From Gemmatimonadota bacterium (GTDB taxonomy: Bacteria > Latescibacterota > UBA2968 > UBA8231), in assembly GCA_038119905.1 (NCBI GenBank), contig JAYOKQ010000007.1, forward strand, positions 250-64,249: DNA of 64,000 bases. The letters run 5' to 3'. A model generated the notes under the pieces. It was not told the DNA's origin and searched no databases. It saw only the letters and a list, made by a program, of their open reading frames with translations. Both the position numbers and the translations under genes were made by a program. This document shows positions 5,809 to 49,123 of this stretch, piece after piece (positions within the stretch are counted from its first letter, which is position 1; the number at the start of each line of letters is the position of its first letter).

Positions 5809-7482
5809 ATGCGACTTAGCGTTGTCCTTCTCAGCTACAATACGCGCGACCTGACGGAGCAGGCGCTGCACTCCGTGCGCGCAGCGATTGGAGACCTAGA
5901 GGCGGAGATTTTCGTGGTTGACAACGCTTCACACGACGGCAGCGCCGATATGGTGGAGCGTCAATTTCCCGATGTGCACCTGCTGCGCAATGAATCCAAT
6001 ACGGGCTTTTCCGCAGGTAATAACGTCGCACTACGCCAGGTGAGCGGGCGCTATGTCTTGTTGCTCAATACCGATACGATCGTGCGCGGCGATACGTTTC
6101 GCCACTTGGTCGATTTTATGGAGGACCATCCACAGGCCGGTGCCGTTGGCTGTAAGATTCTCAACCCCGATGGTACGCTGCAGTTAGACAGCCGGCGCGG
6201 TTTTCCCACGCCGCTTGCCGCGTTCTGTAAGATGTCTGGACTCAGCCGGTTTTTTCCCGACCATCCGACTATTGCTCGATATAATATGACGTTTCTCGAT
6301 CCCGACGAGTGTGCCGAAGTCGACGTGCTATCGGGGTCGTGTATGCTCGTGCGCAAAGAGGCGATGGATCAGGTCGGACTCTTAGATGAAGACTACTTCA
6401 TGTATGGGGAAGACATCGACTGGTGCTATCGCATCCACCGAGCCGGTTGGAAAATTTTCTATACCCCCAATACAGAAATCGTGCATTTTCGCGGCGAGAG
6501 CGGTCGCGGTGTGCCGCTGCGCATACTCTATCGCAAGAGCAAAGCGATGTCGATTTTTGTCGGCAAGCACATGAAGGAGCGCTACCGCTTTTTCCCGCCT
6601 TGGATTCTTCACGTGGGCATTGCGCTCTATGGCGTGCTGCGCTTTGTCGCCAAGGGTGCTCAGGCACTGGCCCTGCCTCTGCTTGACGGCCTGTTGATCG
6701 CGTGCGGTTTACGCTTTGGTTTGGCCGTTCGCTATCATGAGCAACTCGCTCCGCTAATGCACCAAATAGAGGCGCTCAGTAACCAGATTGGGCTACGGGC
6801 AGAGCCCACGCGTTGGTTGACGTTACCGCCGTATTCCGATGAGCAGTGGCTAGCCGTTTACGTCGTCTCGACGTTGGTATGGCTTCTGTCCTTTACGGCA
6901 CTAGGACTCTACGGTCGTAGGCGCTATTCGCCGGCGTGGGCTATCGTCGGGGTGTCGTTGGGTTTCGCGCTGATTTTGACCTTTGTCTTCTTTTTTAAGG
7001 CCTATAACTTTTCGCGCTTGGCCGCCGGTGCGGCCTGGGCGTGCAACGTTGTTTTGCTGGCGGGCTGGCGCCTCGGTGTACGTTGGCTGGGACGAAAGCG
7101 GGGAACTCAGCGCGTGCGGGAACGCGTGCTATTGGTTGGAACGGATGAACAAGCGCGACATTTCATCGAACGGTGGAATGATATAGGCTATATGTCGAGC
7201 GATTTGGTTGGCGTTGTGCAAGTGGGTGCTGGCAACGCCTCTTCGTTCGCTGGCCGCCCCGTCGTCGGCGAATTTGACGAAATGGACGATTTGGTTGGAG
7301 ACCTGAATGTGGATGCGCTGGTCTTTGTGCCGGGCACGCTAGCGCTAGCGCTGGATCACATGCAGGATCGCTGGGGACGGGAAGATCTGCGCGTGTGCAT
7401 GGTTCCGGTGGGATTTGCCGACATGGAAGACGAGTCGAGCACTGCATCTGGGCAGATACCGCTGGTTGATATCGCCGGTTAG
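5809..7482 (+). CDS. GT2 glycosyltransferase fused to a polytopic membrane region and a WbaP-N-terminal-like (CoA-binding-like) module
   Basis: N-terminus LSVVLLSYNTRD..VVDNASHDGS..NTGFSAGNN..DEDYFMYGEDIDW is rhamnosyl-type GT2. Residues about 265-420 are hydrophobic. The C-terminus RVLLVGTDEQARHFIERW..VVGV..VVGEFDEMDDLV..VDALVF resembles the pre-catalytic part of polyprenyl glycosylphosphotransferases. Confidence 0.7.
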   Translation: MRLSVVLLSYNTRDLTEQALHSVRAAIGDLEAEIFVVDNASHDGSADMVERQFPDVHLLRNESNTGFSAGNNVALRQVSGRYVLLLNTDTIVRGDTFRHLVDFMEDHPQAGAVGCKILNPDGTLQLDSRRGFPTPLAAFCKMSGLSRFFPDHPTIARYNMTFLDPDECAEVDVLSGSCMLVRKEAMDQVGLLDEDYFMYGEDIDWCYRIHRAGWKIFYTPNTEIVHFRGESGRGVPLRILYRKSKAMSIFVGKHMKERYRFFPPWILHVGIALYGVLRFVAKGAQALALPLLDGLLIACGLRFGLAVRYHEQLAPLMHQIEALSNQIGLRAEPTRWLTLPPYSDEQWLAVYVVSTLVWLLSFTALGLYGRRRYSPAWAIVGVSLGFALILTFVFFFKAYNFSRLAAGAAWACNVVLLAGWRLGVRWLGRKRGTQRVRERVLLVGTDEQARHFIERWNDIGYMSSDLVGVVQVGAGNASSFAGRPVVGEFDEMDDLVGDLNVDALVFVPGTLALALDHMQDRWGREDLRVCMVPVGFADMEDESSTASGQIPLVDIAG

Positions 7483-34159: not shown

Positions 34160-36685
34160 ATGTCAAAGAAGAAGAAGGCCGGAAAAGTAGATATTCAAGA
34201 TGTGGAACCGGTCGCCGAAAGTGCTGTGCCATCTGTTCGTGTCTGGGATCGCCGCTGGTTTCCCGCCGCACTATTTCTCTGTCTGAGTGCGCTCTATTTC
34301 CACCAGTTTGTTGTATCCGATAATGTCATATACGGCTATGATGCCGGTCTCGATTTTCGCCTAGGAGAAGACATGACCTTCTTGGAGAAGGTCGAGACTG
34401 TCGCCCAGCCGATGTGGCATATGCAAATGGGCGGTCTGCCCCAGTCTGAAGAAATACGTCCGCAGTACTTTCCCACCTATCCGATCTACTTTTTCACCTC
34501 GTTCCACCGCTACTTAGGTTGGCGCTATATACTCACCATGTTCTGCGCTGGCTTGGGTATGTACGTCTTTCTGAGACAAATCGAAATTACGCGCTGGGCT
34601 GCACTATGGGGTGGAATTGCCTATATGTCGGCTCCGACCCTAATGGCTTTCACGTTTGCCGGTCAGTATGCCAAAATGGGCGTGATCGCGCTGTATCCGT
34701 GGATGTGGTATTTCCTCGATCGCGGGCTTGCCGAACGGCGCATTATCCACTTTGTCGGTTTGGGAGTCGTTATTGCTTGTGGTATTTATTCACCTCATCC
34801 CAAAATGCTCTACTACGCACTGTGCGGCACGGGCTTGTTTTTCATTTTTCGCACATATCAATGGTACTTGAAAGAGCGCGACAAAGGTTGGTGTGTCCGC
34901 CGAATTGGTTTTTTTGTCACTGCTATTGTGCTCGGATTAGGGTTGGGTGCGGAAGGGACTTACCCGCTCTATTCGTACACCGGTTCGGAATCAAAGCGTG
35001 CGGCGGGAAAAGACGGCAGTGGCCGCACGGATGAAGAGCAGTTGGCCTATGCGCAAACCTGGTCATTACATCCCGAAGAAGTTGCTTCGTTGGTCATTCC
35101 CGAATTTGGTGGTTTCAATCTGCCCAAAGAGGGGCGTAGCACGTATTGGGGCCGCAACCCGCGGAAAGACAATTCGGAGTATTTCGGTGTCCTCGTAGTT
35201 GTTTTGGCACTTTTAGCTGTTATTCAACGTAGGCGCGATCCTCTGGTGATCTTCCTGTGTGCGGGGTTTGTCCTATCCCTTGCTTATACATTGGGAGGGC
35301 ACACGCCGGTCCACTGGCTCGCCTACCATCTTCTGCCGGCGATCAAACTTTTTCGCGCCGTAGGTATGGCTGCTTACCTGTTTGCATTTCCCGCCTGTGT
35401 GTTAGCGGCTATGGGGTTACAGCGCCTGTTGGAAGTCGATGCGGAAGAAGAGCCCACACAACAAAAGCGACTGATCCTTGTCGCGGGGGCGATCGCCGGT
35501 ATTGCGCTGCTAGTCGCAATGGCGCCGGGTGCGATGACTTCATTGTGGAATGGGCTGTTTTACAGCGATATCACCGCACAGAAGGCGCGTATATTACAGG
35601 TCAATCTGGATTGGCTGTCGCGCGGTAGTACCTATGTCGTGCTCGTTGTGCTGGGTGGACTTACCGCGCTTCTGCTGCGCATAAAGGGCGTCATCGGCAC
35701 CGGAACGGCCATCGTAGCGTTGAGTATTCTCTCGCTATGCGATACTTGGCGCATCAACCAAGTTTTTCTCAAATACGAAAATCCAAGTGCCTACGCCGAC
35801 TTGCGCCAAGCGAATGTGCAGGCAAAGCGCCTGATGCGCGCAGACGGCGAACTCTTCCGCGTGTTGCCCCTGCCGGAATATCACATACTCAAGCAAGATG
35901 GCTTGCAGTTGGATGGTATTGCTTCCATAACGGGATTTCACGATTTGACGGTCGGGCGCTACGATCGCCTGCTGCGCGATATTGAACCTGTGACGAACTT
36001 GTTTTGGTCGAAATATGCGATGGGACGGGAGATACCTTATACCGACGCAGATCTTTTGGGTGCCATTCATCCGCTCATCAATTTACTCAACGGTAAATAC
36101 CTAGTTGTGCCGCGCGGTATTACCATGGCCCTACCTGCCGATCGGTTCCCACTGCTCGGCGAGGCCGATAACTATCGCATATATGAAAATCTACAGGCGT
36201 TGCCTTGGTGTTACTTGGCCCCAAGTGCACAGGTCATAACGGACGAAGACCAAGCGATAGAAATGCTGCGCAGCGGTCAGATCGATCCAGCTTCAGTCGC
36301 CCTTATCGAAGCGCCCTTGCCTTTTGAATTGTCCCAAAGCGGCGATACGTCCAATGATCGAGTTGAAGTCATAGAGCACAGCCCCGGTGAAGGTATCGTT
36401 CGCCTACAGACGCACAGTCCGGAAGCGCGTCTATTGGTGCTATCTGAAAACTATCAGTCGAACTGGTCTGTGTGGGTAGACGGACAAGAGGCCGATATCC
36501 GTCGCGCAAATTACGTCTGGAAAGGAGTCGCCCTGCCGGCCGGAGACCATCAGGTTGAGTTTCGCTACTACTCGCCGGCGCTCTTTTGGTCGCGTTTGGC
36601 AATCACACTATGCTTGATCGTAGCCGTCGGTTTGTTATTGAGGGAGTTTGTGAGCCGACGAAAAGCGAGTCCAGCCATTTCCTGA
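34160..36685 (+). CDS. YfhO-like polytopic membrane protein (GT-C-type glycosyltransferase family)
   Basis: 841 aa with more than 10 TM segments in the first 500 aa, a large extracytoplasmic C-domain and a terminal TM helix. This is YfhO-type architecture. Confidence 0.6.
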   Translation: MSKKKKAGKVDIQDVEPVAESAVPSVRVWDRRWFPAALFLCLSALYFHQFVVSDNVIYGYDAGLDFRLGEDMTFLEKVETVAQPMWHMQMGGLPQSEEIRPQYFPTYPIYFFTSFHRYLGWRYILTMFCAGLGMYVFLRQIEITRWAALWGGIAYMSAPTLMAFTFAGQYAKMGVIALYPWMWYFLDRGLAERRIIHFVGLGVVIACGIYSPHPKMLYYALCGTGLFFIFRTYQWYLKERDKGWCVRRIGFFVTAIVLGLGLGAEGTYPLYSYTGSESKRAAGKDGSGRTDEEQLAYAQTWSLHPEEVASLVIPEFGGFNLPKEGRSTYWGRNPRKDNSEYFGVLVVVLALLAVIQRRRDPLVIFLCAGFVLSLAYTLGGHTPVHWLAYHLLPAIKLFRAVGMAAYLFAFPACVLAAMGLQRLLEVDAEEEPTQQKRLILVAGAIAGIALLVAMAPGAMTSLWNGLFYSDITAQKARILQVNLDWLSRGSTYVVLVVLGGLTALLLRIKGVIGTGTAIVALSILSLCDTWRINQVFLKYENPSAYADLRQANVQAKRLMRADGELFRVLPLPEYHILKQDGLQLDGIASITGFHDLTVGRYDRLLRDIEPVTNLFWSKYAMGREIPYTDADLLGAIHPLINLLNGKYLVVPRGITMALPADRFPLLGEADNYRIYENLQALPWCYLAPSAQVITDEDQAIEMLRSGQIDPASVALIEAPLPFELSQSGDTSNDRVEVIEHSPGEGIVRLQTHSPEARLLVLSENYQSNWSVWVDGQEADIRRANYVWKGVALPAGDHQVEFRYYSPALFWSRLAITLCLIVAVGLLLREFVSRRKASPAIS

Positions 36686-37029: not shown

Positions 37030-37058
37030 TTGACACTACCTACCTTTGTCTCTATTAT
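37030..37058 (+). promoter_or_regulatory. consensus sigma70-like promoter TTGACA-17-TATTAT with an upstream A-tract
   Basis: The hexamers and the exact 17-nt spacer were read directly. GGGAAAAAATAC lies immediately 5' and looks like an UP element. The site is about 250 nt upstream of the ATG at 37309. Confidence 0.6.
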
Positions 37059-37308
37059 TACACTCCGCCTAAATATAGGTGTGGTATGTCTATACCTGTA
37101 CTTGTCTATTAGTGCAATTTAAAAAGTATTGTGGCTGGATTATTTTTTGAAGAGAGAGAAAGGAGGGCGGCGGCGCAAAGAAGTTGCTTTACTATTTGAT
37201 TTAACTTGATTTAGGATATGATGAAGAGCTTAGCTTGAGTCCTTGCTAAGCGCAAATTTTTTCATCGTTTTGTCATTCTTAATACAGGGTAACTTCCCTG
37301 AGGAGGAA

Positions 37309-40300
37309 ATGATGAAGGGTAGCAAATGCTTACTACTTCTCGCTGCATTTTTGGTGGGATTTGGCCTGACGAAGACGGCAGACGCACAGTCTGCCCTCAT
37401 TGAGTCGGTCACAATCGTCTCCCCAGATAGCGGCACGGTTCGAGGAATCGACTCCACTTTTGTGGTGACTGCTACGGTCCTCGACTACACGGCTTCGGAC
37501 AGTCTCGAAGTTGTCATGTATCTGATCGCAGGTGGCGTCGATACGGCGGGTGTCGCTGACAATACTGGAACAGATCTTAGCACGCGTTTCACTGCCATCT
37601 CTGGTAAGACGATGGCGCCTGCCAGCAATGTTTCGGTGAACGCGAAAAGGCGTGGCACCGCGACTGGTCGCGACACGCTGGCATCTGGTAACGCTGATTC
37701 TGTCGTTGTCAGCACGGGAACCGACCGGGTCACGTTCACTTGGTATGGTAGGATCGACAGCACCTCTGGTACCGTGAATAACATCAGGGCGGCCGCTGTC
37801 GCGTTGGATTATAACACGAGCGCAGCGAACTCGTCTACCGCGGTAAAGGTTTCTGCTGCCACAAAGAGCTTCGATATTGATGCTGACCGTCCAGCCAATC
37901 CGGCGGGTCTCGTTTCTATAAATGCCGGCGCATTGCAGACCGCCACGATCGGTGGTGTTTCCAAGAGCATCGCCGGTATTGGTGACACGATTAACGTTCG
38001 GACCAAGCTGGGAGAAACCACTGTTGGTGTCCTTCAGGGTGATTCGCTCTCCGTCAGGTTGAACATCTTCGGCAAGAATTTTGCCGTGGATAAGACTTCT
38101 CGTTCTTCCGATACGCTGAAGACGCTGATCACCCTCGCTGAAGGCACGTTTGGCGAATTAGATGGTAGCGCCAATACGACGGCTGCGGTGTACTTGGTCG
38201 ACAAGGCCGGTAACCTGTCGGGTGGATTGGATACGGCCCCCCAGGGTGCCACGAAGGCTACGACCTTCATATTCGACACCAAGGCTCCTGACCTAACTGA
38301 GGCTACGGGTGACACCATTCTACCGGTTTCGAATGATACCATCACTGACGGCACGATTAACGGTGATGGTGTAGCTAAAGACTTAAATCCCATCACCTAT
38401 GGTCTGGGTGAAGCGTTGGATTCACTGTTCATCGCCTTCACAGGTCCGAGCACGTTGAATGTCAAGATTGGTAGTGGCGCAACGAAAAATGACGGTGCTA
38501 GCTCGCCTCTTGCCAAAACGACTAAAAGAGTGCTTGACTTGAGCTCCAAGGCCAATGGTGCTAAGGATTCGACGGCTACCGTCAGAGGCACTGATGGCTC
38601 TTCGGTTGCTACCGTCCAGGGTGCTTTGGCAGATTCTGTGCTAGCAACGGGCGTTTACTCCATCACTTTCAAGGGCAAGGACTTGGCCGGCAACGTCGGT
38701 CCCGTTTTGACCCGTGCAAACGTCTACGTTGATGTGGATGACGTCAAGTTTGACCGTCTGTTCCCGACGAAAGCTTCTTTCGGCGCAGTGGGCGCTTCTC
38801 GTGTTGACACGCTAGACGAGGAAACGGCTAAGTTGGTTTTCAAACTTTCTGAGCCCGCCGATAGTGTGCTGATCACTTACAGAGGAATCGCTGGTCCGGA
38901 TGAGAACAAGTCGCGCACGCGTCGTCTGTCGGGTTCGCAGTTGACGAATACGGCTAGCGAACAGATCGTAGCGATTGATTCGTTGGTACATGCATCCAAG
39001 TACGAACTGACGGTGTTGGCTCGTGACTTGGCCGGCAACTTCTCTCGCACGAGAAAAGACACGTTCTTCTACGACACCTCGTTTGTCGTTCCCGTGCTGA
39101 AGCGCTTTGTCGTCACTGCAAGCCAGCGCGGTCCGGGTAGCCCGGTTAATGCTGGTGCTAGTGTTACGGTCACGCTCAAGGCTGATGCCACCACGGACGG
39201 CACGCGTGATGCTGTGACGTACAAGCGTCCGGCGATCTTGAAGGTTGCCAACAAGAACGGCGGTGTTAAGGTCGAAGGTAACGGTGTAACGAAGCTCGAT
39301 GATTCCCGCTGGCAGTTGAACGACCTTGACTGGGTGACTGGTGTTCGCACGGTAACCGTCACGGACACCACTTCCGTGGACGAGTTGACGATTTCGATCG
39401 TTGATTCGACTTCTGGTGGTGGTCCCTACACGGGTGCATTGGACTCCGTGATTGTGATCCAGCCTGATGTCTATAGCAAGCTTGTTGCTACGGCTCCGGC
39501 GGTGGTTGGTGTTGGTCAGGACTTCAATATCTCTGTGTCCAAGCAGGATAAATTCGGCAACGTTCGCGTCGCTGATAGTGGTGATGCCATTTCTTCTGAT
39601 CATGACGGTCTGGATGTCGCCATTGGCGGCGACGCCATCATTCAGAAGGGTCTTGACACGGTTGTCGCGAGAATCAGCCGTGCTCGCGATGCTTGGATCT
39701 CTCTGACGGTCGCTGGTCTTTCTGACACCGTGATGGTTACGGCGGCTCCTGGTGGAGCTCCGTTGGATGGTCCTGATCAGTTGGTCGGCGAAGACTACAT
39801 GGGCGCTGATGGTATGGGCGACCAGGGTGGCTTCGTCATGATGACGTGGGATCTGTCCGACGATCATGGCTCGGTTGATGCTTATCGCATCTACCGTCAG
39901 ATTCAGGTGACGGCCGACCTCGATTCGACCGGTGCTGTCGTCATGTTGGCCGAGCCCCAAGCTGCTTGGGTGCCGTGGGCCAAGGTGGACGCTGTTCCGG
40001 GTGAAGGTGTTGGTCGTGCGATCGTAGCGACCCTCGACAATGTGGCCACGTATTGGGCTATCGCAGCCGAGCGTGGAAACCAGTCGACGGACGCCGTGAT
40101 CAACAGCAAGGCCGTTAGCACCGAAGCGATGGACGCCTACGCCGCTATGGCGCAGACGATCCAGCAGAGCCAGCAGGTTGCCGCTATGGGCGATCAGCCG
40201 GTTTTTGCCTCGCTGCTGCCGGAAGCTCTTTCGTTCGCCCAGCAGGGTGTTGCTCCTCGTCTGAAGAGTGTGGACGAAGGCGTAATGCGTTCGGCTATGG

Positions 40301-41643
40301 CTGAGACGAAGGTTGCTGTTCGTGCTGTAGACAACATTGCTCCGCTGGCCGTGCCTTACCTGCGTGTCCTTGATACGCCGGGAGATGCGGGTAGCAGCAT
40401 CACGCTGACCTGGACCAAGTCCGAAGATGATCGCATGCTGGCGCGTAGCGCTTCGAATGCGACCTCGCTCGGTTCGGTCTCTGATTTGGTCGCTGGTGTT
40501 AAGGGCTACAACATTTACCGTAAAGTAGGCGCCACGGGTGAATACGCTCTGGTCGGTAAAGCTTCGTCCGGTTCGACCTCGTTTGTCGATCAGACGGCGC
40601 TGAACGGCGTTCGTTACACCTACTCGGTGGCTCCGTATGACGAAGACAACGTGACGAAGTCTGATGTGGAGCGGACGGCTATGGCCATCCGTAACACGGT
40701 TGTCGACAAAAACGGCAAGGCGGTCTACGGCCTCTTCGGCGCAGACAACCAGGTCGGTTTTGACGACTTCTTCATCTTCGCTGACAACTTCGGTTTGACG
40801 GCGGCTGATGAGGCTTTCGAGCCGGCTTTCGATCTGGCGTCCAGCGCTGGTCTGCCGAGAGTCGATTTCGATGACTTCTTCGTCTTCGCTGACAACTTTG
40901 GCCGTGGTATCGAAGCCGCCGGTAAGGTGGTTCCGATGCAGGCTGGTCTCAACGCCGATGCGCGCCTCTATCTTGAGGCTTCCGCTGAACTGCCCCGCGT
41001 GGGTGAGGAAGTGGCCATTGACGTCGACTTGGCCGACTACGTGCAGTTGAAGGGTTACGGTCTGTCGGTTGTTTACGATGCCGACAAACTGGAGTATGTC
41101 CGCACGGTAACGACGAACTCGCTGCTGGGTGAGGGTGAGTTGGCCACGCCGCGCGCCATTACGCAGACGGAAGGTCAAGTTGACATCGCCGCCTATGGTG
41201 AGACCGTTTCGGAAGGCGCTCTTGGTATGAGCGTTATCTTCCGCACCAAGTCGGAGATCGAAAACACCTACGTCGAGGTGACGGACAGCCAGGTGCGTGA
41301 CGGTGATTTCGCTGTCAACACCGTGGCCTTGCCGGCGCCTGTGCAGATCCAGACGCGTCCGGAAGCGTTCGCCTTGGCGAACAACTATCCGAACCCGTTC
41401 AACCCTGCCACGACCATCAAGTATGCCTTGCCGGAAGCTTCTCAGGTGCGTCTGGAGGTCTTCAACGTAGTGGGTCAGGTTGTTAGCACCCTCGTTGATA
41501 ACCACCAGAATGCGGGCCGCTATGTGGTCCAGTGGGATGCGACCAACGATCAGGGACACAGCTTGTCTTCGGGTATTTACTTCTACCGCCTACAGGCCGG
41601 TGGTGAGTTCCTCGAAGTCAAGAAGATGTTGCTGCTCAAGTAA
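37309..41643 (+). CDS. giant secreted surface protein: Ig/FN3-like repeats, degenerate dockerin-like duplicate, cohesin-like module, T9SS-type C-terminal sorting domain
   Basis: GAGGAGG RBS, then MMKGSKCLLLLAAFLVGFGLTKTADAQ signal peptide. FN3 ITLTWTKSEDD..YNIYRK..YTYSVAPYD. Duplicate FDDFFxFADNFG. Cohesin-like GEEVAIDVDLADYVQLKGYGLSVVYDADKLEYV. C-terminus NYPNPFNPATTIKYALP...SGIYFYRLQAG..KKMLLLK. Confidence 0.85.
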   Translation: MMKGSKCLLLLAAFLVGFGLTKTADAQSALIESVTIVSPDSGTVRGIDSTFVVTATVLDYTASDSLEVVMYLIAGGVDTAGVADNTGTDLSTRFTAISGKTMAPASNVSVNAKRRGTATGRDTLASGNADSVVVSTGTDRVTFTWYGRIDSTSGTVNNIRAAAVALDYNTSAANSSTAVKVSAATKSFDIDADRPANPAGLVSINAGALQTATIGGVSKSIAGIGDTINVRTKLGETTVGVLQGDSLSVRLNIFGKNFAVDKTSRSSDTLKTLITLAEGTFGELDGSANTTAAVYLVDKAGNLSGGLDTAPQGATKATTFIFDTKAPDLTEATGDTILPVSNDTITDGTINGDGVAKDLNPITYGLGEALDSLFIAFTGPSTLNVKIGSGATKNDGASSPLAKTTKRVLDLSSKANGAKDSTATVRGTDGSSVATVQGALADSVLATGVYSITFKGKDLAGNVGPVLTRANVYVDVDDVKFDRLFPTKASFGAVGASRVDTLDEETAKLVFKLSEPADSVLITYRGIAGPDENKSRTRRLSGSQLTNTASEQIVAIDSLVHASKYELTVLARDLAGNFSRTRKDTFFYDTSFVVPVLKRFVVTASQRGPGSPVNAGASVTVTLKADATTDGTRDAVTYKRPAILKVANKNGGVKVEGNGVTKLDDSRWQLNDLDWVTGVRTVTVTDTTSVDELTISIVDSTSGGGPYTGALDSVIVIQPDVYSKLVATAPAVVGVGQDFNISVSKQDKFGNVRVADSGDAISSDHDGLDVAIGGDAIIQKGLDTVVARISRARDAWISLTVAGLSDTVMVTAAPGGAPLDGPDQLVGEDYMGADGMGDQGGFVMMTWDLSDDHGSVDAYRIYRQIQVTADLDSTGAVVMLAEPQAAWVPWAKVDAVPGEGVGRAIVATLDNVATYWAIAAERGNQSTDAVINSKAVSTEAMDAYAAMAQTIQQSQQVAAMGDQPVFASLLPEALSFAQQGVAPRLKSVDEGVMRSAMAETKVAVRAVDNIAPLAVPYLRVLDTPGDAGSSITLTWTKSEDDRMLARSASNATSLGSVSDLVAGVKGYNIYRKVGATGEYALVGKASSGSTSFVDQTALNGVRYTYSVAPYDEDNVTKSDVERTAMAIRNTVVDKNGKAVYGLFGADNQVGFDDFFIFADNFGLTAADEAFEPAFDLASSAGLPRVDFDDFFVFADNFGRGIEAAGKVVPMQAGLNADARLYLEASAELPRVGEEVAIDVDLADYVQLKGYGLSVVYDADKLEYVRTVTTNSLLGEGELATPRAITQTEGQVDIAAYGETVSEGALGMSVIFRTKSEIENTYVEVTDSQVRDGDFAVNTVALPAPVQIQTRPEAFALANNYPNPFNPATTIKYALPEASQVRLEVFNVVGQVVSTLVDNHQNAGRYVVQWDATNDQGHSLSSGIYFYRLQAGGEFLEVKKMLLLK

Positions 41644-41659
41644 GCAAGTGTAATGGGTA

Positions 41660-41689
41660 GTGGGATGGTGCCTTTTGGCACCATCCCAC
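41660..41689 (+). other. perfect 13-bp intercistronic hairpin (no U-tract)
   Basis: GTGGGATGGTGCC-TTTT-GGCACCATCCCAC, 17 nt after the stop of the giant gene. Confidence 0.6.
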
Positions 41690-41747
41690 AATGGCTTAAT
41701 GGTTAACCGTTAGTTTTGTTGACAATAAAGAAAAAGGTGAACCAACA

Positions 41748-43304
41748 ATGCAGAAAAGCGTGCGCAAGATTTTTACTCTTGCCATCGCCTCCCTGCTCGC
41801 GCTCAGTGGCGCTGCCTTCGCCGGTGATAATGCAGGCGTCGTTGTCTCTTTGGATAGCGACGCTGAAGTATCTGGAGTCGGCGCCGGTGCCACAATCGAT
41901 GTGGCTCTTTCGGCTTCGGGAATGGTTGGGGTTAAGCAGTTCGACGTTACCATAACTGTCTCGCCTGCAGATGCTTTCGATTTGTCTGCAACGACATTTG
42001 CTCAGAATGCGGCGGCTTTTACAATTTCGCCGGGTGTTGAGTTTCCCGCTGACGGAGAAGTTAAGAGTGGAGCGGCGAGCTTTGGCGCTGCTGTGGAAGG
42101 CGATGCGAGTTTAGGTGCGTTTACCTTAACTACGTCGGCTAGTTTTACCGAGGATACGGAAGCTACGATCACGGTGACACGCGTCTCCATCGGTCCTACT
42201 TCGACCGATCGCGACGTGTTTGACGCTGATGCGTTGGGTTTGAGTGTTACGGTGAATCCGCCGGCTCCTCCCGTCATCGAGCCTATGCTCGAGGCGCTCA
42301 CTGTGACCGATGCGAGTTTAGATTACTCGGCTGTCGGTGAAGGTGATGTTCTAGACGGCAGCGATGGCGAGTTACTGATTGCCGCTGAATTTAGCGATGA
42401 GACGGGTAGCTTGGGTGCCGGACAGGCCGTGCAGTGGACCATTATGAACAACGGTTCAGAGTCGGTCTACTTGGTAGCCGAGGATGGAAGCATTGAGATT
42501 GAAGCCGGTTCTGAACTGGTCCTCTCATCTGAGACGGACGAGGACGGTGTTGCCGGCGCGGTTTTCGATGCTGAAGGCGATCGCACTGCAGGGACGACCA
42601 GCTTGAGTGTCTCTGTGAGCACTACGGCTGACAATTCCGATGGTGTTGAGCGTGAGCTGTCCGTTGATTTCAGCGCTACGTGGGATGTCCCCGTCGCAGC
42701 TGAATTGGCGAGTTTGACGTCGCAGGTGACCGTTGACGAAAATGTCCTGCTCCAGTGGGGTGTTGCTTCGCAGTCCAACAACCTGGGGTGGGAGGTTTTT
42801 CGCAGCACGGATAACCGCGTCTTCACCAAGGTTAGCGAATTGGTGTTGGGCGATGGTAACAGCGATGAGTTCAAGTCATACAGTTTTGTAGACTCGAACT
42901 TGCCGCAGGTTGACGTGCTGTATTACTACCTAAATCAGATTGATTTGGATGGAACGACGACTCGTTCGCAGGTTATCGAAGTACTGCTTTCGCCCACGGC
43001 GGTTGCCGATTTGGCCCTGCCTACGGTGAACGCTTTGAGACAGAATTTCCCCAATCCGTTCAACCCTGAGACTATGATCAGCTTCGATTTGAGTGGCGAT
43101 CAGGTTGTTAGCTTGACCATTTATGACATGGCCGGTCAGGCCATTCGCACGTTGGTCGATGCGCAGCCGATGACTGCTGGCAATTATAAGCAGTTGTGGG
43201 ATGGCCGGAATGATAGCGGAGCCAAAGTTGGTAGCGGTATTTACTTTTACCAGCTTCGCGCGGGTGATTTCGTTGCTAAGAAGAAAATGACCCTGCTCCA
43301 ATAA
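41748..43304 (+). CDS. secreted cohesin-like protein with T9SS-type C-terminal sorting domain
   Basis: Signal peptide ...ALSGAAFA. N-terminal GATIDVALSASGMVGVKQFDVTITVSP is cohesin-like. C-terminus NFPNPFNPETMISFDL...SGIYFYQLRAGDFVAKKKMTLLQ. Confidence 0.8.
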   Translation: MQKSVRKIFTLAIASLLALSGAAFAGDNAGVVVSLDSDAEVSGVGAGATIDVALSASGMVGVKQFDVTITVSPADAFDLSATTFAQNAAAFTISPGVEFPADGEVKSGAASFGAAVEGDASLGAFTLTTSASFTEDTEATITVTRVSIGPTSTDRDVFDADALGLSVTVNPPAPPVIEPMLEALTVTDASLDYSAVGEGDVLDGSDGELLIAAEFSDETGSLGAGQAVQWTIMNNGSESVYLVAEDGSIEIEAGSELVLSSETDEDGVAGAVFDAEGDRTAGTTSLSVSVSTTADNSDGVERELSVDFSATWDVPVAAELASLTSQVTVDENVLLQWGVASQSNNLGWEVFRSTDNRVFTKVSELVLGDGNSDEFKSYSFVDSNLPQVDVLYYYLNQIDLDGTTTRSQVIEVLLSPTAVADLALPTVNALRQNFPNPFNPETMISFDLSGDQVVSLTIYDMAGQAIRTLVDAQPMTAGNYKQLWDGRNDSGAKVGSGIYFYQLRAGDFVAKKKMTLLQ

Positions 43305-43330
43305 CATCGGGTAAAGCTGTTGTTTTAAAA

Positions 43331-43363
43331 CCGCTGGATTCTTTGGAATCCAGCGGTTTTTTT
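43331..43363 (+). terminator. rho-independent terminator
   Basis: 11-bp stem CCGCTGGATTC/GAATCCAGCGG, loop TTTG, then T7. Confidence 0.9.
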
Positions 43364-43393
43364 GTTTTTAAAAAGAATAAGGTGTTGCCTATC

Positions 43394-43422
43394 TTGTTTC
43401 TGAATTTCCCGTCAATTATATT
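43394..43422 (+). promoter_or_regulatory. possible promoter TTGTTT-17-TATATT for moaD
   Basis: The hexamers and 17-nt spacer were read directly, about 27 nt upstream of the TTG start. Confidence 0.35.
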
Positions 43423-45968: not shown

Positions 45969-46982
45969 ATGTTAGTTCTTAGTATCGAATCTTCGTGTGA
46001 TGAAACCTCTGCTGCAGTGGTAGACGAGGGGTTTGCCGTTCGTTCAAATATCGTTTATTCCCAGCAAGATCATGCACCTTACGGTGGGGTGGTGCCGGAA
46101 TTGGCTTCTCGTGCTCATATGCGAACGATGGTAGCTACCGTTCGTCAGGCCATGACCCAAGCAAATGTTGGTTGGGCGGATATCGACGGCATTGCCGTTA
46201 CGCGTGGACCGGGCTTAGTGGGCTCTCTTTTAGTCGGTGTATCTGTAGCCAAGGGTATGGCTATGGCAGCCAATAAACCGCTTATCGGAGTACAACATTT
46301 AGAGGGGCATATATTTTCCAACTTAATCGAGCACGAGATCGCGTCTCCCTTTTTGACGCTTTTAGTTTCTGGGGGACATACCGAACTCATTCTCGTTAAA
46401 GAGCTGGGTGTATACGAGTTAGTTGGTCGGACGCGCGATGATGCAGCCGGCGAAGCATTTGACAAAGTAGCCAAATTACTGGGATTACTGCCCAAAGAAG
46501 GTTCCATTGCGGGCGGGCGAATCGTATCTGACTTGGCAAAAAAGGGCGATCCGCAGGCGATCCCTTTTCCGCGCGCACTAGAAGGGGAAGCAGATTTTAG
46601 CTTTAGCGGCCTGAAGACCGCGGTGCTCAACTACGTTCGCAAGCTAGATCCCGATGAACGGAATGATCAACTGGCCGATATCGCCGCTAGTTTTCAGTCG
46701 GCTGTTGTCGATTCGCTTATAAGTAAAACGATCGGTGTTATAGAGCGCGGAGACATCGATATGCAGGCTGTTTGCTTAGCTGGCGGCGTGGCGGCCAACC
46801 AGTCCCTGCGCGAAGGGCTGCGCCTAGAGGTAGAAAAGCGCGGACTTCCTTTTCACTGTCCGTCCATCGCCTATTGCACGGACAATGCGGCGATGATTGG
46901 TGCCGTTGGTGTGCATCGATTGAGCTGTGGCATGATAGATGATTTCAGCTTGGATGCTGTTCCGAGAATGAGTTTGTGTTGA
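45969..46982 (+). CDS. tsaD: tRNA N6-adenosine threonylcarbamoyltransferase
   Basis: MLVLSIESSCDETSAAVV, GVQHLEGH and SGGHTELI motifs. The ORF-track start 45963 is a GTG two codons upstream. Confidence 0.92.
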   Translation: MLVLSIESSCDETSAAVVDEGFAVRSNIVYSQQDHAPYGGVVPELASRAHMRTMVATVRQAMTQANVGWADIDGIAVTRGPGLVGSLLVGVSVAKGMAMAANKPLIGVQHLEGHIFSNLIEHEIASPFLTLLVSGGHTELILVKELGVYELVGRTRDDAAGEAFDKVAKLLGLLPKEGSIAGGRIVSDLAKKGDPQAIPFPRALEGEADFSFSGLKTAVLNYVRKLDPDERNDQLADIAASFQSAVVDSLISKTIGVIERGDIDMQAVCLAGGVAANQSLREGLRLEVEKRGLPFHCPSIAYCTDNAAMIGAVGVHRLSCGMIDDFSLDAVPRMSLC

Positions 46983-49123
46983 CGGAAACTGCTTCGGTGC
47001 CCGGTTCCGCGCTGTACTTTGCCGGAAGCGGTCTGTTGCTCGTATTAATCCCCCTACTCGTTGCGCTGGTCTTTGGTATCTATAGACGCACCTATCCTAC
47101 GGTGCGTGGTGGCTGGTTTTGGACACTAGTCATCCTACGCAGTGGTGTTTTCTTCTTGCTAATTGCTCTATTGGCAGAACCCATTCTTGAATTTTGGAAC
47201 AAACGCGTTAGAAATCCACATCTGCTCGTTCTTATAGACACTAGTCCTAGTATGAGCGTAGCGGCTGGAGATAGCACGCGGCTCCAGCAGGTTCAAGCAT
47301 ATCTTTTAGGTGAGGCATGGCGTTCACACGCAGACAAATTGGACGTGGAAGCGTGGGCTTTTTCACATGAGGCCTATCAAGTAGATATAGATACCGTCTA
47401 TGCGCTGCAGACGGGCGGCCTTGCAACGGATATCGGTGGAACGATAGAGCAAATCGCTCGGGAAACCGGTGGATTAGCTGGTTTTCAAGGTGTTTTGCTA
47501 CTTACCGATGGCGCGCATAATCTAGGGCGAGATCCAGTGAAGGCGCTCGCAAATAGTAAGGTGCCGATTTACGCTCTAAACGTTGGTAGCCGCGATCTTC
47601 CCGTCGACATTCAGTTTGTAGATGCGCAAGTGGTCAGCGAGGGGTACGTAGGCAAGGAGCTCGTCATCAGAGCAACCGTGCGCAATCAGGGTTATAGCGG
47701 TGAGCGCGTGGTCGTTCACTTGTATGATGGCCAGCGCGAACTCGATCAGCAGCAGCTTGATTTACAGCTCGGCGATCAGCAGGTCCAATTTACGACCCTC
47801 CCGAGCGTGCCCGGTCCCCATCGCTATCGTCTGCGCATCGACCCGCTTCCGGGCGAATTGACGCGCGATAACAATGAAACGCTAGTTTTTGCGCGCGTAT
47901 TGGAAGAGCGCATTCGCGTGTTAATCGTCGCCAGTAGGCCGAGCAGTGATCTCAGCTTTTTGCAACGCGGGTTGGCTGCTGACTCTACCCTAAACGTTGA
48001 GGCGGTGGTTAAAAAGGATGCGCAGGTTGCGTATTCCGGTGTGTGGGACTACACGGCACTGCGCGATAGCGATGTTTTAGTACTATTGGGATACGATGAA
48101 GCAATGTGGCGCGGGAAAGCTATTGAGCGCGTGCGTGCACAGGTGCGCGGTGGTATGGGGCTTCTTTTTATCGCCGATTCGGATGAGCAGGCCGGCTGGC
48201 AAAGTGCGCTAAGTATAGACGAGCTATTGCCATTGGTGCGTAAAGCGGCACCGTTTATCGAGCAGAAAACGCTGTTGCGCGTTGGTTCACAGGGAACTAA
48301 TCACCCGATCATCCGCTCGCATAGCGATAAAGAGGGAGATTCCTGGGCCGCATTACCGCCGCTGATGGGATATTTCCCCTCGGCGCAGCTCCGCCCCGGT
48401 GCGCTGGCTCTTGTCGAGAGCAGTGAAGGCATTCCAATTGTCGTATCGGGTCTGTATGGTATGGGTAAAACGGTTGCTGCTCTATCTCATTCGTTCTGGC
48501 GTCTCGATTTGCTCAGCAGCGGTATAGCGGGCAGTCCGCAGACTGTTCGTCAGCTGTGGCGCAACGCCATTCGCTGGCTGGCTACGCGAACTCCTGTGGG
48601 GCGCGTTCGCGTATCGACCGAGCGCGCCGTATATCGCGCAGGTGCGACGGTGCAGTTTACTGCGCAAGTTTTTGACGAACTGCTGCAGCCCCAGGAGGGA
48701 TGTGCCGTAACGGTAATGCTTAATGCTGGTGAGAAGATTTCGCTGCGGGATACGGGAGACGGTTTCTATAGAGGAGAATATCGAGGTGCTCCCGCGGGTG
48801 AATACAGCTATGAAGTTGCGGCTGAGTCAGACGGAGTGCCAATCGGTCGCGAAGGAGGCGACTTCGTCGTAGAGCAACACAGCGTGGAGTGGACTGATGT
48901 GCGCGCCGATGGCGTGCTGTTAGGGCAACTTGCGCGCGATAGTGGGGGACTCGCACGCGATATATCAGAAGGGAACCAGCTTCTGCGCGATTGGAAGCTA
49001 AAACAGACACTCGTTGAAGAGCGCTGGGACCTTCGGCTCTGGGGCAGCTGGGAACCACTTATGTTCATCGCTGTGCTGCTGGCAATCGAATGGATGGTGC
49101 GCAAGCGCTTGGGCATGATATAG
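46976..49123 (+). CDS. membrane protein with BatA-like N-terminal TM pair and vWA domain
   Basis: Two N-terminal TM helices, a MIDAS-like LVLIDTSPSMS motif and a C-terminal TM helix. Confidence 0.55.
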   Translation: MLTETASVPGSALYFAGSGLLLVLIPLLVALVFGIYRRTYPTVRGGWFWTLVILRSGVFFLLIALLAEPILEFWNKRVRNPHLLVLIDTSPSMSVAAGDSTRLQQVQAYLLGEAWRSHADKLDVEAWAFSHEAYQVDIDTVYALQTGGLATDIGGTIEQIARETGGLAGFQGVLLLTDGAHNLGRDPVKALANSKVPIYALNVGSRDLPVDIQFVDAQVVSEGYVGKELVIRATVRNQGYSGERVVVHLYDGQRELDQQQLDLQLGDQQVQFTTLPSVPGPHRYRLRIDPLPGELTRDNNETLVFARVLEERIRVLIVASRPSSDLSFLQRGLAADSTLNVEAVVKKDAQVAYSGVWDYTALRDSDVLVLLGYDEAMWRGKAIERVRAQVRGGMGLLFIADSDEQAGWQSALSIDELLPLVRKAAPFIEQKTLLRVGSQGTNHPIIRSHSDKEGDSWAALPPLMGYFPSAQLRPGALALVESSEGIPIVVSGLYGMGKTVAALSHSFWRLDLLSSGIAGSPQTVRQLWRNAIRWLATRTPVGRVRVSTERAVYRAGATVQFTAQVFDELLQPQEGCAVTVMLNAGEKISLRDTGDGFYRGEYRGAPAGEYSYEVAAESDGVPIGREGGDFVVEQHSVEWTDVRADGVLLGQLARDSGGLARDISEGNQLLRDWKLKQTLVEERWDLRLWGSWEPLMFIAVLLAIEWMVRKRLGMI

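Follow-up and report, generated by a model that had tools for sequence, protein, structure and literature searches.

A predicted dockerin-cohesin cassette on one of two paired, predicted T9SS cargo proteins of a Latescibacterota-type bacterium, and its possible role in a cross-linked surface coat

What might two adjacent genes for large, apparently non-enzymatic secreted proteins be doing with modules that resemble the connectors of cellulosomes? The question is raised by contig JAYOKQ010000007.1 of a Gemmatimonadota bacterium, of which a stretch of 64,000 nt (the window, whose numbering is used for all positions below) contains two consecutive open reading frames (ORFs), here called P1 and P2. 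It is as the glue of cellulosomes that cohesin-dockerin pairs are chiefly familiar; both modules are also widespread outside cellulosomes, where their roles are mostly obscure. An original prediction, made from the letters of the window, held that both proteins carry a cohesin-like module and a type IX secretion system (T9SS) sorting domain, that P1 in addition carries a dockerin-like element, and that the two might polymerise on the cell surface, homo- or heterotypically, into an S-layer-like or adhesive scaffold. The analysis described here points to a dockerin-cohesin tandem that, by profile and model, closes the membrane-proximal part of P1, recurs in three classes of paralogues, and is paired in P1 orthologues with a gene for a probable orphan cohesin. 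On this basis, a coat of T9SS cargo cross-linked by its own modules is tentatively proposed.

The presence of a cohesin on P1 is borne out at several levels. On the segment of amino acids (aa) ~1208-1357 taken alone, the cohesin family PF00963 scored 19.8 bits (E=1e-3), which is below its gathering threshold (GA) of 24.1, and phmmer matched it weakly (E=2e-3) to a cohesin used outside cellulosomes, that of NagJ from Clostridium perfringens. A family profile built with 49 homologues matched the same NagJ cohesin at E=1e-5, and PF00963 was found in 17 of the 50 family members (best E=2.1e-6). Moreover, an AlphaFold2 (AF2) model covering aa 1020-1444 of P1 shows the nine-stranded beta-sandwich (jelly-roll) of cohesins, with a predicted local distance difference test (pLDDT) of 75-90. 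In Foldseek, this model superposed on 2jh2_A with a template-modelling (TM) score of 0.81 and a root-mean-square deviation of 2.6 Å, on 2vo8 with a TM score of 0.78, and on many further type I and type II cohesins with scores of 0.5-0.8. Because the family profile and the superposition agree, P1 aa ~1214-1350 is taken as a real cohesin by profile and predicted fold.

Directly before the cohesin, and joined to it by the short conserved linker ..FGRxxxxAGKxVPxxAGLN.., lies the segment that the original prediction had read as a dockerin- or EF-hand-like pair. Its two copies, VGFDDFFIFADNFG and VDFDDFFVFADNFG, are 36 residues apart, with FDDFF motifs at aa 1151 and 1187, and show the tandem duplication of a ~22-residue loop and helix that is expected of a dockerin (aa 1140-1200). 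AF2 predicts a pattern of long, short and long helices, the short one lying between helices 1151-1158 and 1187-1195. When an 80-position profile of the family was compared with solved structures, seven of eight matches were dockerin chains and the alignment covered both repeats. In particular, the best matches were the Cel48 dockerin of Pseudobacteroides cellulosolvens (2y3n_B, E=1.2e-4) and the ScaA XDoc of Acetivibrio cellulolyticus (4wi0_B, 6.4e-4; 4u3s_B, 1.8e-3), with which the segment has the helix end ..FGK/FGR in common. The profile also matches P0315, a more distant Latescibacterota protein whose own dockerin passes PF00404 (27.6 bits, GA 22.9), at an independent E-value (i-E) of 1.9e-11. 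Judged by these profiles, the P1 segment is a dockerin homologue, one whose dependence on calcium is doubtful for reasons given below.

P2 is resolved by AF2 into four domains (mean pLDDT 85), the first of which, D1, is modelled with about nine strands at a pLDDT of ~95. Direct tests of D1 gave little: a profile search of the PDB returned no cohesin and only a weak, partial match to CsgH (E 0.002-0.01), to which no interpretation is given, and PF00963 matched just one of 24 family members. Foldseek with the whole four-domain model found generic Ig/FN3 tandems, and no family match was found for D2 or D3. The connection to cohesins runs through other sequences. In hhalign, D1 and the P1 cohesin are collinear across 110 columns (P=0.012). 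A search of 1.84 billion representatives with the D1 profile gave 200 clusters, and positions 1-141 of the profile align end to end with aa 23-167 of the Latescibacterota protein P0244 (i-E 7.9e-6). This P0244 segment scores 32.2 bits on PF00963 by itself (GA 24.1), and its top PDB match is, weakly, the CipA cohesin 1aoh. Furthermore, D1-type modules are often preceded by a signal peptide, a canonical dockerin, a VIPDPPGPGPGP linker and the residues ..NA.., and the P1 cassette shows an equal arrangement (..FGRxxxAGKVVPxxAGLNA..). Among 148 representatives of the D1 family, at least 16 have a dockerin on the same chain, and further large proteins with a T9SS C-terminal domain (CTD) start with the series signal peptide, dockerin, Pro/Gly linker, D1-type cohesin. 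Taken through these intermediates, D1 is probably a divergent cohesin; the cohesin-like module that had been proposed for P2 is thus linked to the family by way of the PF00963-positive P0244 and escapes direct detection.

D1-type modules also stand alone in small proteins, namely P0249, P0271 and about 60 other representatives of ~200 aa. In 13 of these ~200-aa proteins a lipoprotein box is present (e.g., ..LLAALVLSGC.. in P0271), and it may be that such lipoproteins act as membrane-anchored sockets for dockerin-bearing proteins.

Both P1 and P2 begin with a signal peptide and end with a T9SS type-A CTD, in agreement with the original prediction. The signal peptides, which are conserved in orthologues, were identified by reading the sequence (basic residues, then a hydrophobic segment that leads to an AxA-type site, ADA/Q in P1 and AFA/G in P2). 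TIGR04183, for which NCBI sets a curated cut-off of 23, scores 37.0 bits on P1 and 34.4 on P2; both proteins also exceed the GA of FlgD_ig (37.6 and 35.2 bits), and Por_Secre_tail (GA 27) is above its own in P1 (30.8 bits) and below it in P2 (22.4 bits). Whole-protein scans of P1 and P2 with Pfam and NCBIfam recovered the CTD only, the cohesin surfacing in segment- and family-level scans alone, and the database labels of these proteins read hypothetical, 'FlgD Ig-like domain containing' or 'T9SS type A sorting domain-containing'. T9SS cargo loses its CTD and is then attached to a glycolipid at the cell surface (PMC7468200, PMC10202324). By analogy with established type-A CTDs, P1 and P2 would be secreted and anchored through this system. 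Removal of the CTD and tethering to the glycolipid would place the P1 cohesin and dockerin near the outer membrane and the P2 D1 about three domains away from it. The mature chains of both proteins are acidic and free of Cys, with a high content of Ala, Val, Thr, Gly, Asp and Ser.

P1 and P2 form one bicistronic transcription unit, since the promoter and leader are conserved, a covarying hairpin lies between the genes, and the strong terminator is found only after P2 (Table 1). The consensus promoter noted by the original prediction is of a type present at 14 of 16 orthologous loci. Its -35 core, CTTGACACT, is invariant in seven aligned relatives and its -10 element, TATWAT, is nearly so (region compared in loci L001-L078); the transcription start of P1 was placed by inference from the -10 box. 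The leader, rightly described as long, measures 212-302 nt in relatives, mostly with a hairpin close to the 5' end whose sequence differs among lineages; within the leader, the blocks GAGAAAGGAGGG and TTCATCGTTTTGTCATTCTT are conserved, and a match to an Rfam family was not found. The P1 start at ATG 37309 is regarded as the real one because the conserved Shine-Dalgarno sequence and the signal peptide begin there, the block CCCTGAGGAGGAAATGATGAAG being essentially invariant in the seven relatives; an alternative start at TTG 37243 was dismissed on the same grounds. The intercistronic stem-loop begins ~17 nt 3' of the P1 stop codon. It occurs in 18 related loci, pairs of class-2 paralogues (see below) included, and compensatory changes affect 11 of its 14 predicted pairs. 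It is likely that this hairpin serves as a 3' stabiliser of the mRNA or, by terminating transcription in part, fixes the ratio of P1 to P2. Weak Rfam matches to SurA and AaHKsRNA41 at 43325-43405, far under their gathering scores, are ascribed to the terminator hairpin, because both overlap it.

Codon usage was compared with that of 40 neighbouring ORFs. In P1, the fraction of GGT is.62 (neighbours.27), that of GCT.40 (.18), CGT.47 (.17), TTC.76 (.29) and AAG.77 (.49), and GGG is absent (.16 in the neighbours). Within four-fold codon families, T-ending codons make up 0.37 in P1 and 0.35 in P2, as against 0.195 +/- 0.064 in the neighbours. The shift to T-ending codons seen by eye in the original prediction thus applies to GGT, GCT and CGT, with TTC shifted as well, whereas ACT is unshifted in P1. 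The direction of this bias is typical of highly expressed genes.

Table 1. Features of the P1-P2 locus, in window numbering
Feature	Position	Strand	Description
Promoter	37030..37058	+	Sigma-70-type, TTGACA-17-TATTAT; 11/12 consensus positions
5' leader	37065..37308	+	~244 nt; stem-loops near 5' end; Shine-Dalgarno GAGGAGG at 37300-37306
P1 gene	37309..41643	+	1444 aa from ATG; pI 4.6; single Cys, located within signal peptide
P1 Sec signal peptide	37309..37386	+	MMKGSKCLLLLAAFLVGFGLTKTADA, then predicted cleavage before Q (..TADA/Q); sequence reading; kept in orthologues
P1 distal region, aa 27-829	37387..39795	+	Predicted chain of divergent Ig/FN3-like beta domains; DxAGN motifs
FN3-A, aa ~830-935, and conserved linker, aa ~936-1021	39796..40371	+	Cassette start; kept in three paralogue classes
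FN3-B, aa ~1022-1128	40372..40692	+	AF2 beta-sandwich; weak PDB FN3 matches
P1 dockerin-like module, aa ~1140-1200	40726..40908	+	Two GFDDFFxFADNFG segments; predicted helices 1151-1158 and 1187-1195
P1 cohesin module, aa ~1214-1350	40948..41358	+	Profile and predicted fold
P1 T9SS type-A C-terminal sorting domain	41380..41640	+	TIGR04183, Por_Secre_tail, FlgD_ig
Intercistronic stem-loop	41660..41689	+	Perfect 13 bp, GTGGGATGGTGCC-TTTT-GGCACCATCCCAC; loop UUUU; no U tract
P2 gene	41748..43304	+	518 aa; pI 4.05; no Cys
P2 signal peptide	41748..41822	+	..LSGAAFA/GDNAG; sequence reading; AF2 N-terminal helix aa 2-23
P2 D1, aa 26-175	41823..42272	+	Divergent cohesin-like beta-sandwich (predicted) at mature N-terminus; no dockerin
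P2 D2, aa 176-315, and D3, aa 316-425	42273..43022	+	AF2: D2, beta-sandwich without family match; D3, FN3-like
P2 T9SS type-A C-terminal sorting domain	43047..43301	+	TIGR04183, FlgD_ig
Intrinsic terminator	43327..43370	+	15-bp stem and T run; strong; solely after P2

The gene pair is strictly conserved. Orthologues of P1 (1450-1720 aa) occur in at least 20 genomes, a search with P2 found 244 homologues, mostly of ~515 aa, and P2 directly follows every full-length P1 orthologue at the orthologous loci examined. Neither of two outcomes that would have counted against the original prediction was seen: profile and fold searches do find cohesin and dockerin, and the genes stay together in relatives. 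The order hisD, hisB, GT4 (a glycosyltransferase, GT), YfhO-like, P1, P2, moaD, moaE, phosphatase .. TsaD .. FtsK, LolA, S8 peptidase is conserved as well; it persists in long contigs in which P2 is only 53-59% identical, and the window has the same neighbours. The part of P1 from aa ~818 to 1444, which comprises FN3-A, its linker, FN3-B, the dockerin-like module, the cohesin and the CTD (hereafter the cassette), reaches much further. A scan in which each species was represented by a single genome yielded 168 cassette relatives, and tblastn combined with ORF calling at 84 loci sorted its bearers into three paralogue classes that share this region. Class 1 consists of the P1 orthologues, with an N-terminal part containing ..SPDSGxxRGID.. 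and always with P2 downstream. Class 2 (1750-2420 aa) has a repeated 'VREDAG' motif and is mostly followed by a P2-like gene for ~681 aa in which D1-D2 is duplicated, and class 3 comprises He_PIG proteins of 805-935 aa with no P2-like gene downstream. The earlier framing of the locus as a single two-gene case was therefore too narrow: the cassette is a family-wide C-terminal module.

The cassette relatives lie nearly all in metagenome-assembled genomes (MAGs) labelled Latescibacterota, and some of the closest ones are labelled Gemmatimonadota. No cultured member of this phylum is known. The labels of the closest MAGs conflict, being Gemmatimonadota or Gemmatimonadetes, Latescibacterota, 'Handelsmanbacteria' and, once, 'Actinomycetota' (loci L005, L007-L009 and L011 versus L010 and L012). 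Because the labels disagree at the phylum level despite a common syntenic locus, several submissions probably give this lineage a wrong label. Some relatives come from MAGs with isolate names (SB0661_bin_36) of presumably sponge-associated origin, which would suit the adhesin reading discussed below.

Some Latescibacterota chromosomes hold many copies of the cassette. OZ241889.1 has at least nine class-2 copies of ~1900 aa (L063-L066, L070 and L072-L075), and OZ220478.1 has at least five copies, four of class 2 with ~1900 aa and one of 722 aa (L045, L060, L076, L077 and L083); in both, the copies are scattered over the genome. In such multi-copy chromosomes, the copies of one genome have the same dockerin helices, and these differ from genome to genome, which suggests recent expansion or concerted evolution.

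The region of P1 distal to the cassette differs from it in several respects. The original prediction spoke of about 1000 aa of beta-type repeats. A chain of divergent Ig/FN3-like domains is indeed indicated, with weak FN3 and Big_3 matches at most; repeats recognisable in sequence are not, as hhalign of P1 segments against each other revealed similarity at the level of motifs only (aa 359-381 with 506-528, and aa 442-466 with 557-581) besides that of FN3-A with FN3-B (P=2.5e-4). FN3-B is the FN3 unit that had been placed upstream of the dockerin-like pair, and its assignment agrees with the AF2 model and the PDB matches. Domain scans detected no catalytic or carbohydrate-binding module in the first ~830 residues of P1. 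The distal part is the fastest-evolving one (38-47% identity, as against 60-74% for the C-terminus), and it also evolves faster than P2. Moreover, it is here that the sequon D(S/T)(A/I/L/V/M/T) accumulates: P1 contains 24 copies, compared with 9.6 +/- 3.0 in shuffled sequences (0 of 2000 shuffles reach 24), and P2 contains none where 3.7 are expected. All 24 lie between aa 48 and aa 872 (37450-39925), upstream of FN3-B, the dockerin, the cohesin and the CTD, with only the last (aa 872) inside the cassette, and many are conserved in orthologues, DSV518 for example in 19 of 19. It is possible that the P1 stalk is glycosylated at these sites; the sequon is that of O-glycosylation in Bacteroidota.

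These features can be combined into the following proposal. P1 and P2, made from one presumably strongly expressed bicistronic operon, would be exported by Sec and then by the T9SS, lose their CTDs, and become tethered to glycolipid of the outer membrane, where they would form a major S-layer-like surface coat of a marine Latescibacterota-type bacterium. P1 would provide a long, possibly glycosylated Ig/FN3-like stalk with a membrane-proximal series of FN3, linker, FN3, dockerin and cohesin, and P2 would be a short three-domain protein displaying its orphan cohesin-like D1 at the mature N-terminus. In trans, a cassette's dockerin would plug into the cassette cohesin of a neighbour or into the D1 of P2, and the T9SS cargo would in this way be cross-linked non-covalently into a network. 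As the cassette ends the proteins of three paralogue classes, it might be a generic integration module that admits different distal payloads to one coat. We infer that P1 and P2 are major surface-coat proteins from their codon bias and promoter, their composition (acidic pI and Cys-free mature chains), their position in the core genome and the upstream GT and YfhO-like genes as candidates for glycosylation; the rapid evolution of distal P1 was counted as a further sign. Binding of dockerin to cohesin in trans and formation of a lattice are hypothesised from the sequence. The complete chain, from operon through T9SS export and coat to cross-linking in trans, is held with slightly less than even confidence. 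A narrower version is unlikely as it stands, though worth stating: the tandem would be a self-complementary unit in which each cassette dockerin enters the cohesin of the next molecule to give a daisy chain, which the dockerin-less cohesin of P2 would cap or nucleate, in a layer with interchangeable payloads.

A number of observations weigh against the proposed coat. The dockerin family PF00404 (Dockerin_1) matches neither the P1 segment nor any of 29 relatives at E<=10; the dockerin assignment draws instead on the PDB profile matches and on P0315 as an intermediate. Alignments that include 2y3n_B show that the residues of an EF-hand-like Ca2+ loop (D/N/S at positions 1, 3 and 5, D/E at 12) are not all in place. 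Loop 1, GLFGADNQVGFDD (GLFGxDNxVGFDD), has L at position 1 and G at position 3 throughout the family, and loop 2, whose family consensus DLSPNNxIDxDD appears competent, is interrupted in P1 by a 3-residue insertion (DLASSAGLPRVDFDD; AGLPR) at aa ~1175-1190 (40830-40880). The insertion is shared with the closest marine relatives, P0001, P0006 and P0008, and is absent from the rest of the family; canonical loops, DFDGSGQVDFGD, are kept together with the same FFxFADxFG helices in the more distant Latescibacterota relatives P0244, P0256, P0315 and P0248. The degenerate loop 1 and the insertion in loop 2 therefore make canonical Ca2+-dependent folding doubtful. AF2 assigns the dockerin and its linker a pLDDT of 41-78 and the model a predicted TM score (pTM) of 0.40, so the placement of the domains is not fixed by it. 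Covariation between dockerin and cohesin (mutual information with average product correction, 155 sequences, effective number 45) does not rise above that of control domain pairs, a result that is powerless either way. No component of the T9SS machinery was found among the 10 large window ORFs scanned. The presumed high expression is deduced solely from codon bias relative to the 40 ORFs and from promoter quality. Finally, cross-linking would not be needed for retention, because both proteins carry a covalent anchor signal of their own.

Several of the same observations would be accommodated if the dockerin folded back on, or packed against, the cohesin of its own chain. The cassette would then be a rigid, self-contained stalk or spacer before the CTD that takes no part in joining molecules, and P2 would be a surface protein in its own right, with some other ligand for D1. 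Intramolecular stabilising clasps formed by dockerins are known (PMC3821032). The dockerin and cohesin are always adjacent in cis and joined by the short conserved linker in all three paralogue classes, class-3 proteins carry the cassette yet have no P2-like partner, and a permanently docked module would tolerate degenerate Ca2+ loops. However, the linkers between dockerin and D1 in related proteins are rich in Pro and Gly (VIPDPPGPGPGPY), and such linkers are usually extended. Moreover, the near-identical halves of the dockerin, FDDFFIFADNFG and FDDFFVFADNFG, keep a two-fold symmetry, which in classical dockerins serves dual-mode binding, and the AF2 model contains no confident packing between domains, as its pTM indicates. 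An intramolecular clasp is considered unlikely, though less so than the two readings that follow.

It can also be asked whether P1 is a fibrillar adhesin, its variable distal Ig-like chain binding particles, algal surfaces or sponge matrix, with P2 as an accessory and the cohesin and dockerin folds as mere stalk domains. A long Ig/FN3-like chain with a fastest-evolving distal part is typical of fibrillar adhesins, and Foldseek with the models returns large adhesins, pilins and the fibrillar-adhesin domain 9ifr. By contrast, domain scans of P1 reveal no recognisable ligand-binding head domain, and the core-genome position, strict synteny, codon bias and the operon's own promoter and terminator speak for a major structural component that is made constitutively. 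The adhesin reading is improbable. The adhesin and the coat are compatible readings, since a coat can also be adhesive.

A further possibility is that the cohesins of P1 and P2 receive dockerin-bearing hydrolases encoded elsewhere, in a minimal cellulosome-like scaffold that displays enzymes for polymer degradation. PMC7081726, citing Farag et al. 2017, attributes 'extracellular, cellulosome-affiliated enzymes' to Latescibacteria, and a scaffoldin-like protein with a CTD has been inferred together with dockerin-bearing enzymes in Cloacimonadota, another phylum within the Fibrobacteres-Chlorobi-Bacteroidetes (FCB) group (PMC8542988). D1-type cohesins are also found together with the carbohydrate-binding module (CBM) CBM9 in P0248 and in proteins that contain BACON/PKD arrays, and Latescibacterota have canonical dockerins whose FFxFADxFG helices are the same (P0244). 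This reading is nonetheless improbable, given that each protein has one cohesin and there is no multi-cohesin scaffoldin, that no glycoside hydrolase (GH), polysaccharide lyase, peptidase or CBM was found in P1, P2 or their orthologues (20 orthologues for GH and CBM), and that the dockerin motif is confined to the cassette in the window and in ~1.1 Mb of flanking sequence of the 84 related loci, whole genomes lying beyond that search. The view that the pair is not a cellulosome, voiced in the original prediction, is upheld by these results. A homologue search with a canonical dockerin of 63 aa gave two candidates only and is uninformative on dockerin-bearing enzymes.

In its layout, the P1-P2 pair resembles TfsA and TfsB of Tannerella forsythia, likewise a pair of large surface proteins without enzymatic function that both end in a T9SS CTD and the precedent for the proposed coat. 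Their genes, tfsA and tfsB, are presumably adjacent, and we know of no description of cohesin or dockerin modules in either protein. The glycosylation sequon of Tannerella is enriched in P1 and lacking in P2. The differences are that P1 and P2 belong to Latescibacterota and not to Bacteroidota and that P2 is far smaller than P1; the likeness is one of layout. The S-layer of Tannerella is lost in T9SS mutants (PMC4175972), its T9SS cargo is tethered to glycolipid after removal of the CTD (PMC7468200), and O-glycosylation takes place at D(S/T)(A/I/L/V/M/T) (PMC8550257).

The modules themselves have other counterparts. By profile and predicted fold, the closest solved cohesins are those of C. perfringens glycoside hydrolases (NagJ; 2jh2, 2o4e, 2ozn, 2w1n), which, as in P1, stand beside FN3 and are used outside cellulose degradation. 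They are found on secreted enzymes of a Gram-positive bacterium, whereas P1 and P2 are non-enzymatic predicted T9SS cargo of a diderm, and P1 has dockerin and cohesin in tandem on one chain. Adaptor scaffoldins of cellulosomes likewise carry a cohesin and a dockerin on one polypeptide (PMC4959524). Unlike cellulosomal scaffoldins, P1 and P2 have no multiple cohesins, enzymes, CBM or S-layer homology anchor, the Ca2+ loops of the P1 dockerin are degenerate, and in P1 the dockerin comes immediately before a single cohesin. 'Ca. Stygibacter' of the Cloacimonadota, in the same FCB superphylum, is predicted from MAGs to combine cohesins with a T9SS-type CTD that attaches them to the surface (PMC8542988); there, a 3755-aa protein bears tandem cohesins and CBMs, and GH18, GH57 and peptidases bear dockerins, in contrast to the single cohesins, P1-borne dockerin and lack of enzymes seen here.

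Thus, the ingredients are known already: cohesins and dockerins outside cellulosomes, surface proteins anchored through the T9SS, and T9SS S-layers made of two proteins. What appears to be new is that a fixed dockerin-cohesin tandem serves a whole family as its membrane-proximal cassette and is paired with a gene for an orphan cohesin. The searchable literature yielded no paper that ties Latescibacter* to cohesins or dockerins or to the T9SS, and the word dockerin has zero occurrences in Youssef et al. 2015. If the modules bind each other, they would constitute a natural surface coat built of plugs and sockets, a simple rule for recruiting different surface proteins into one layer, and a ready-made orthogonal cohesin-dockerin pair for protein engineering. 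Should the daisy chain be true, the surface layer of an uncultured diderm phylum would be built with modules of cellulosome type instead of classical S-layer crystallisation domains. Moreover, P1 and P2 offer concrete, highly conserved markers for the metaproteomic detection of marine Latescibacterota.

Two neighbouring genes may be mentioned. Immediately upstream of the P1-P2 operon lies the gene for the YfhO-like (GT-C-type) protein, a polytopic membrane protein of 841 aa (34160-36685, with 5809-7482 further upstream). Its position is conserved in relatives, and GT4, GT2 or rhamnose-synthesis genes adjoin in other genomes. At 46976-49123 a membrane-anchored protein of 715 aa is encoded, for which a weak match to MG2 is the only one found; all syntenic loci have it in this conserved place, with tsaD on one side and ftsK on the other.

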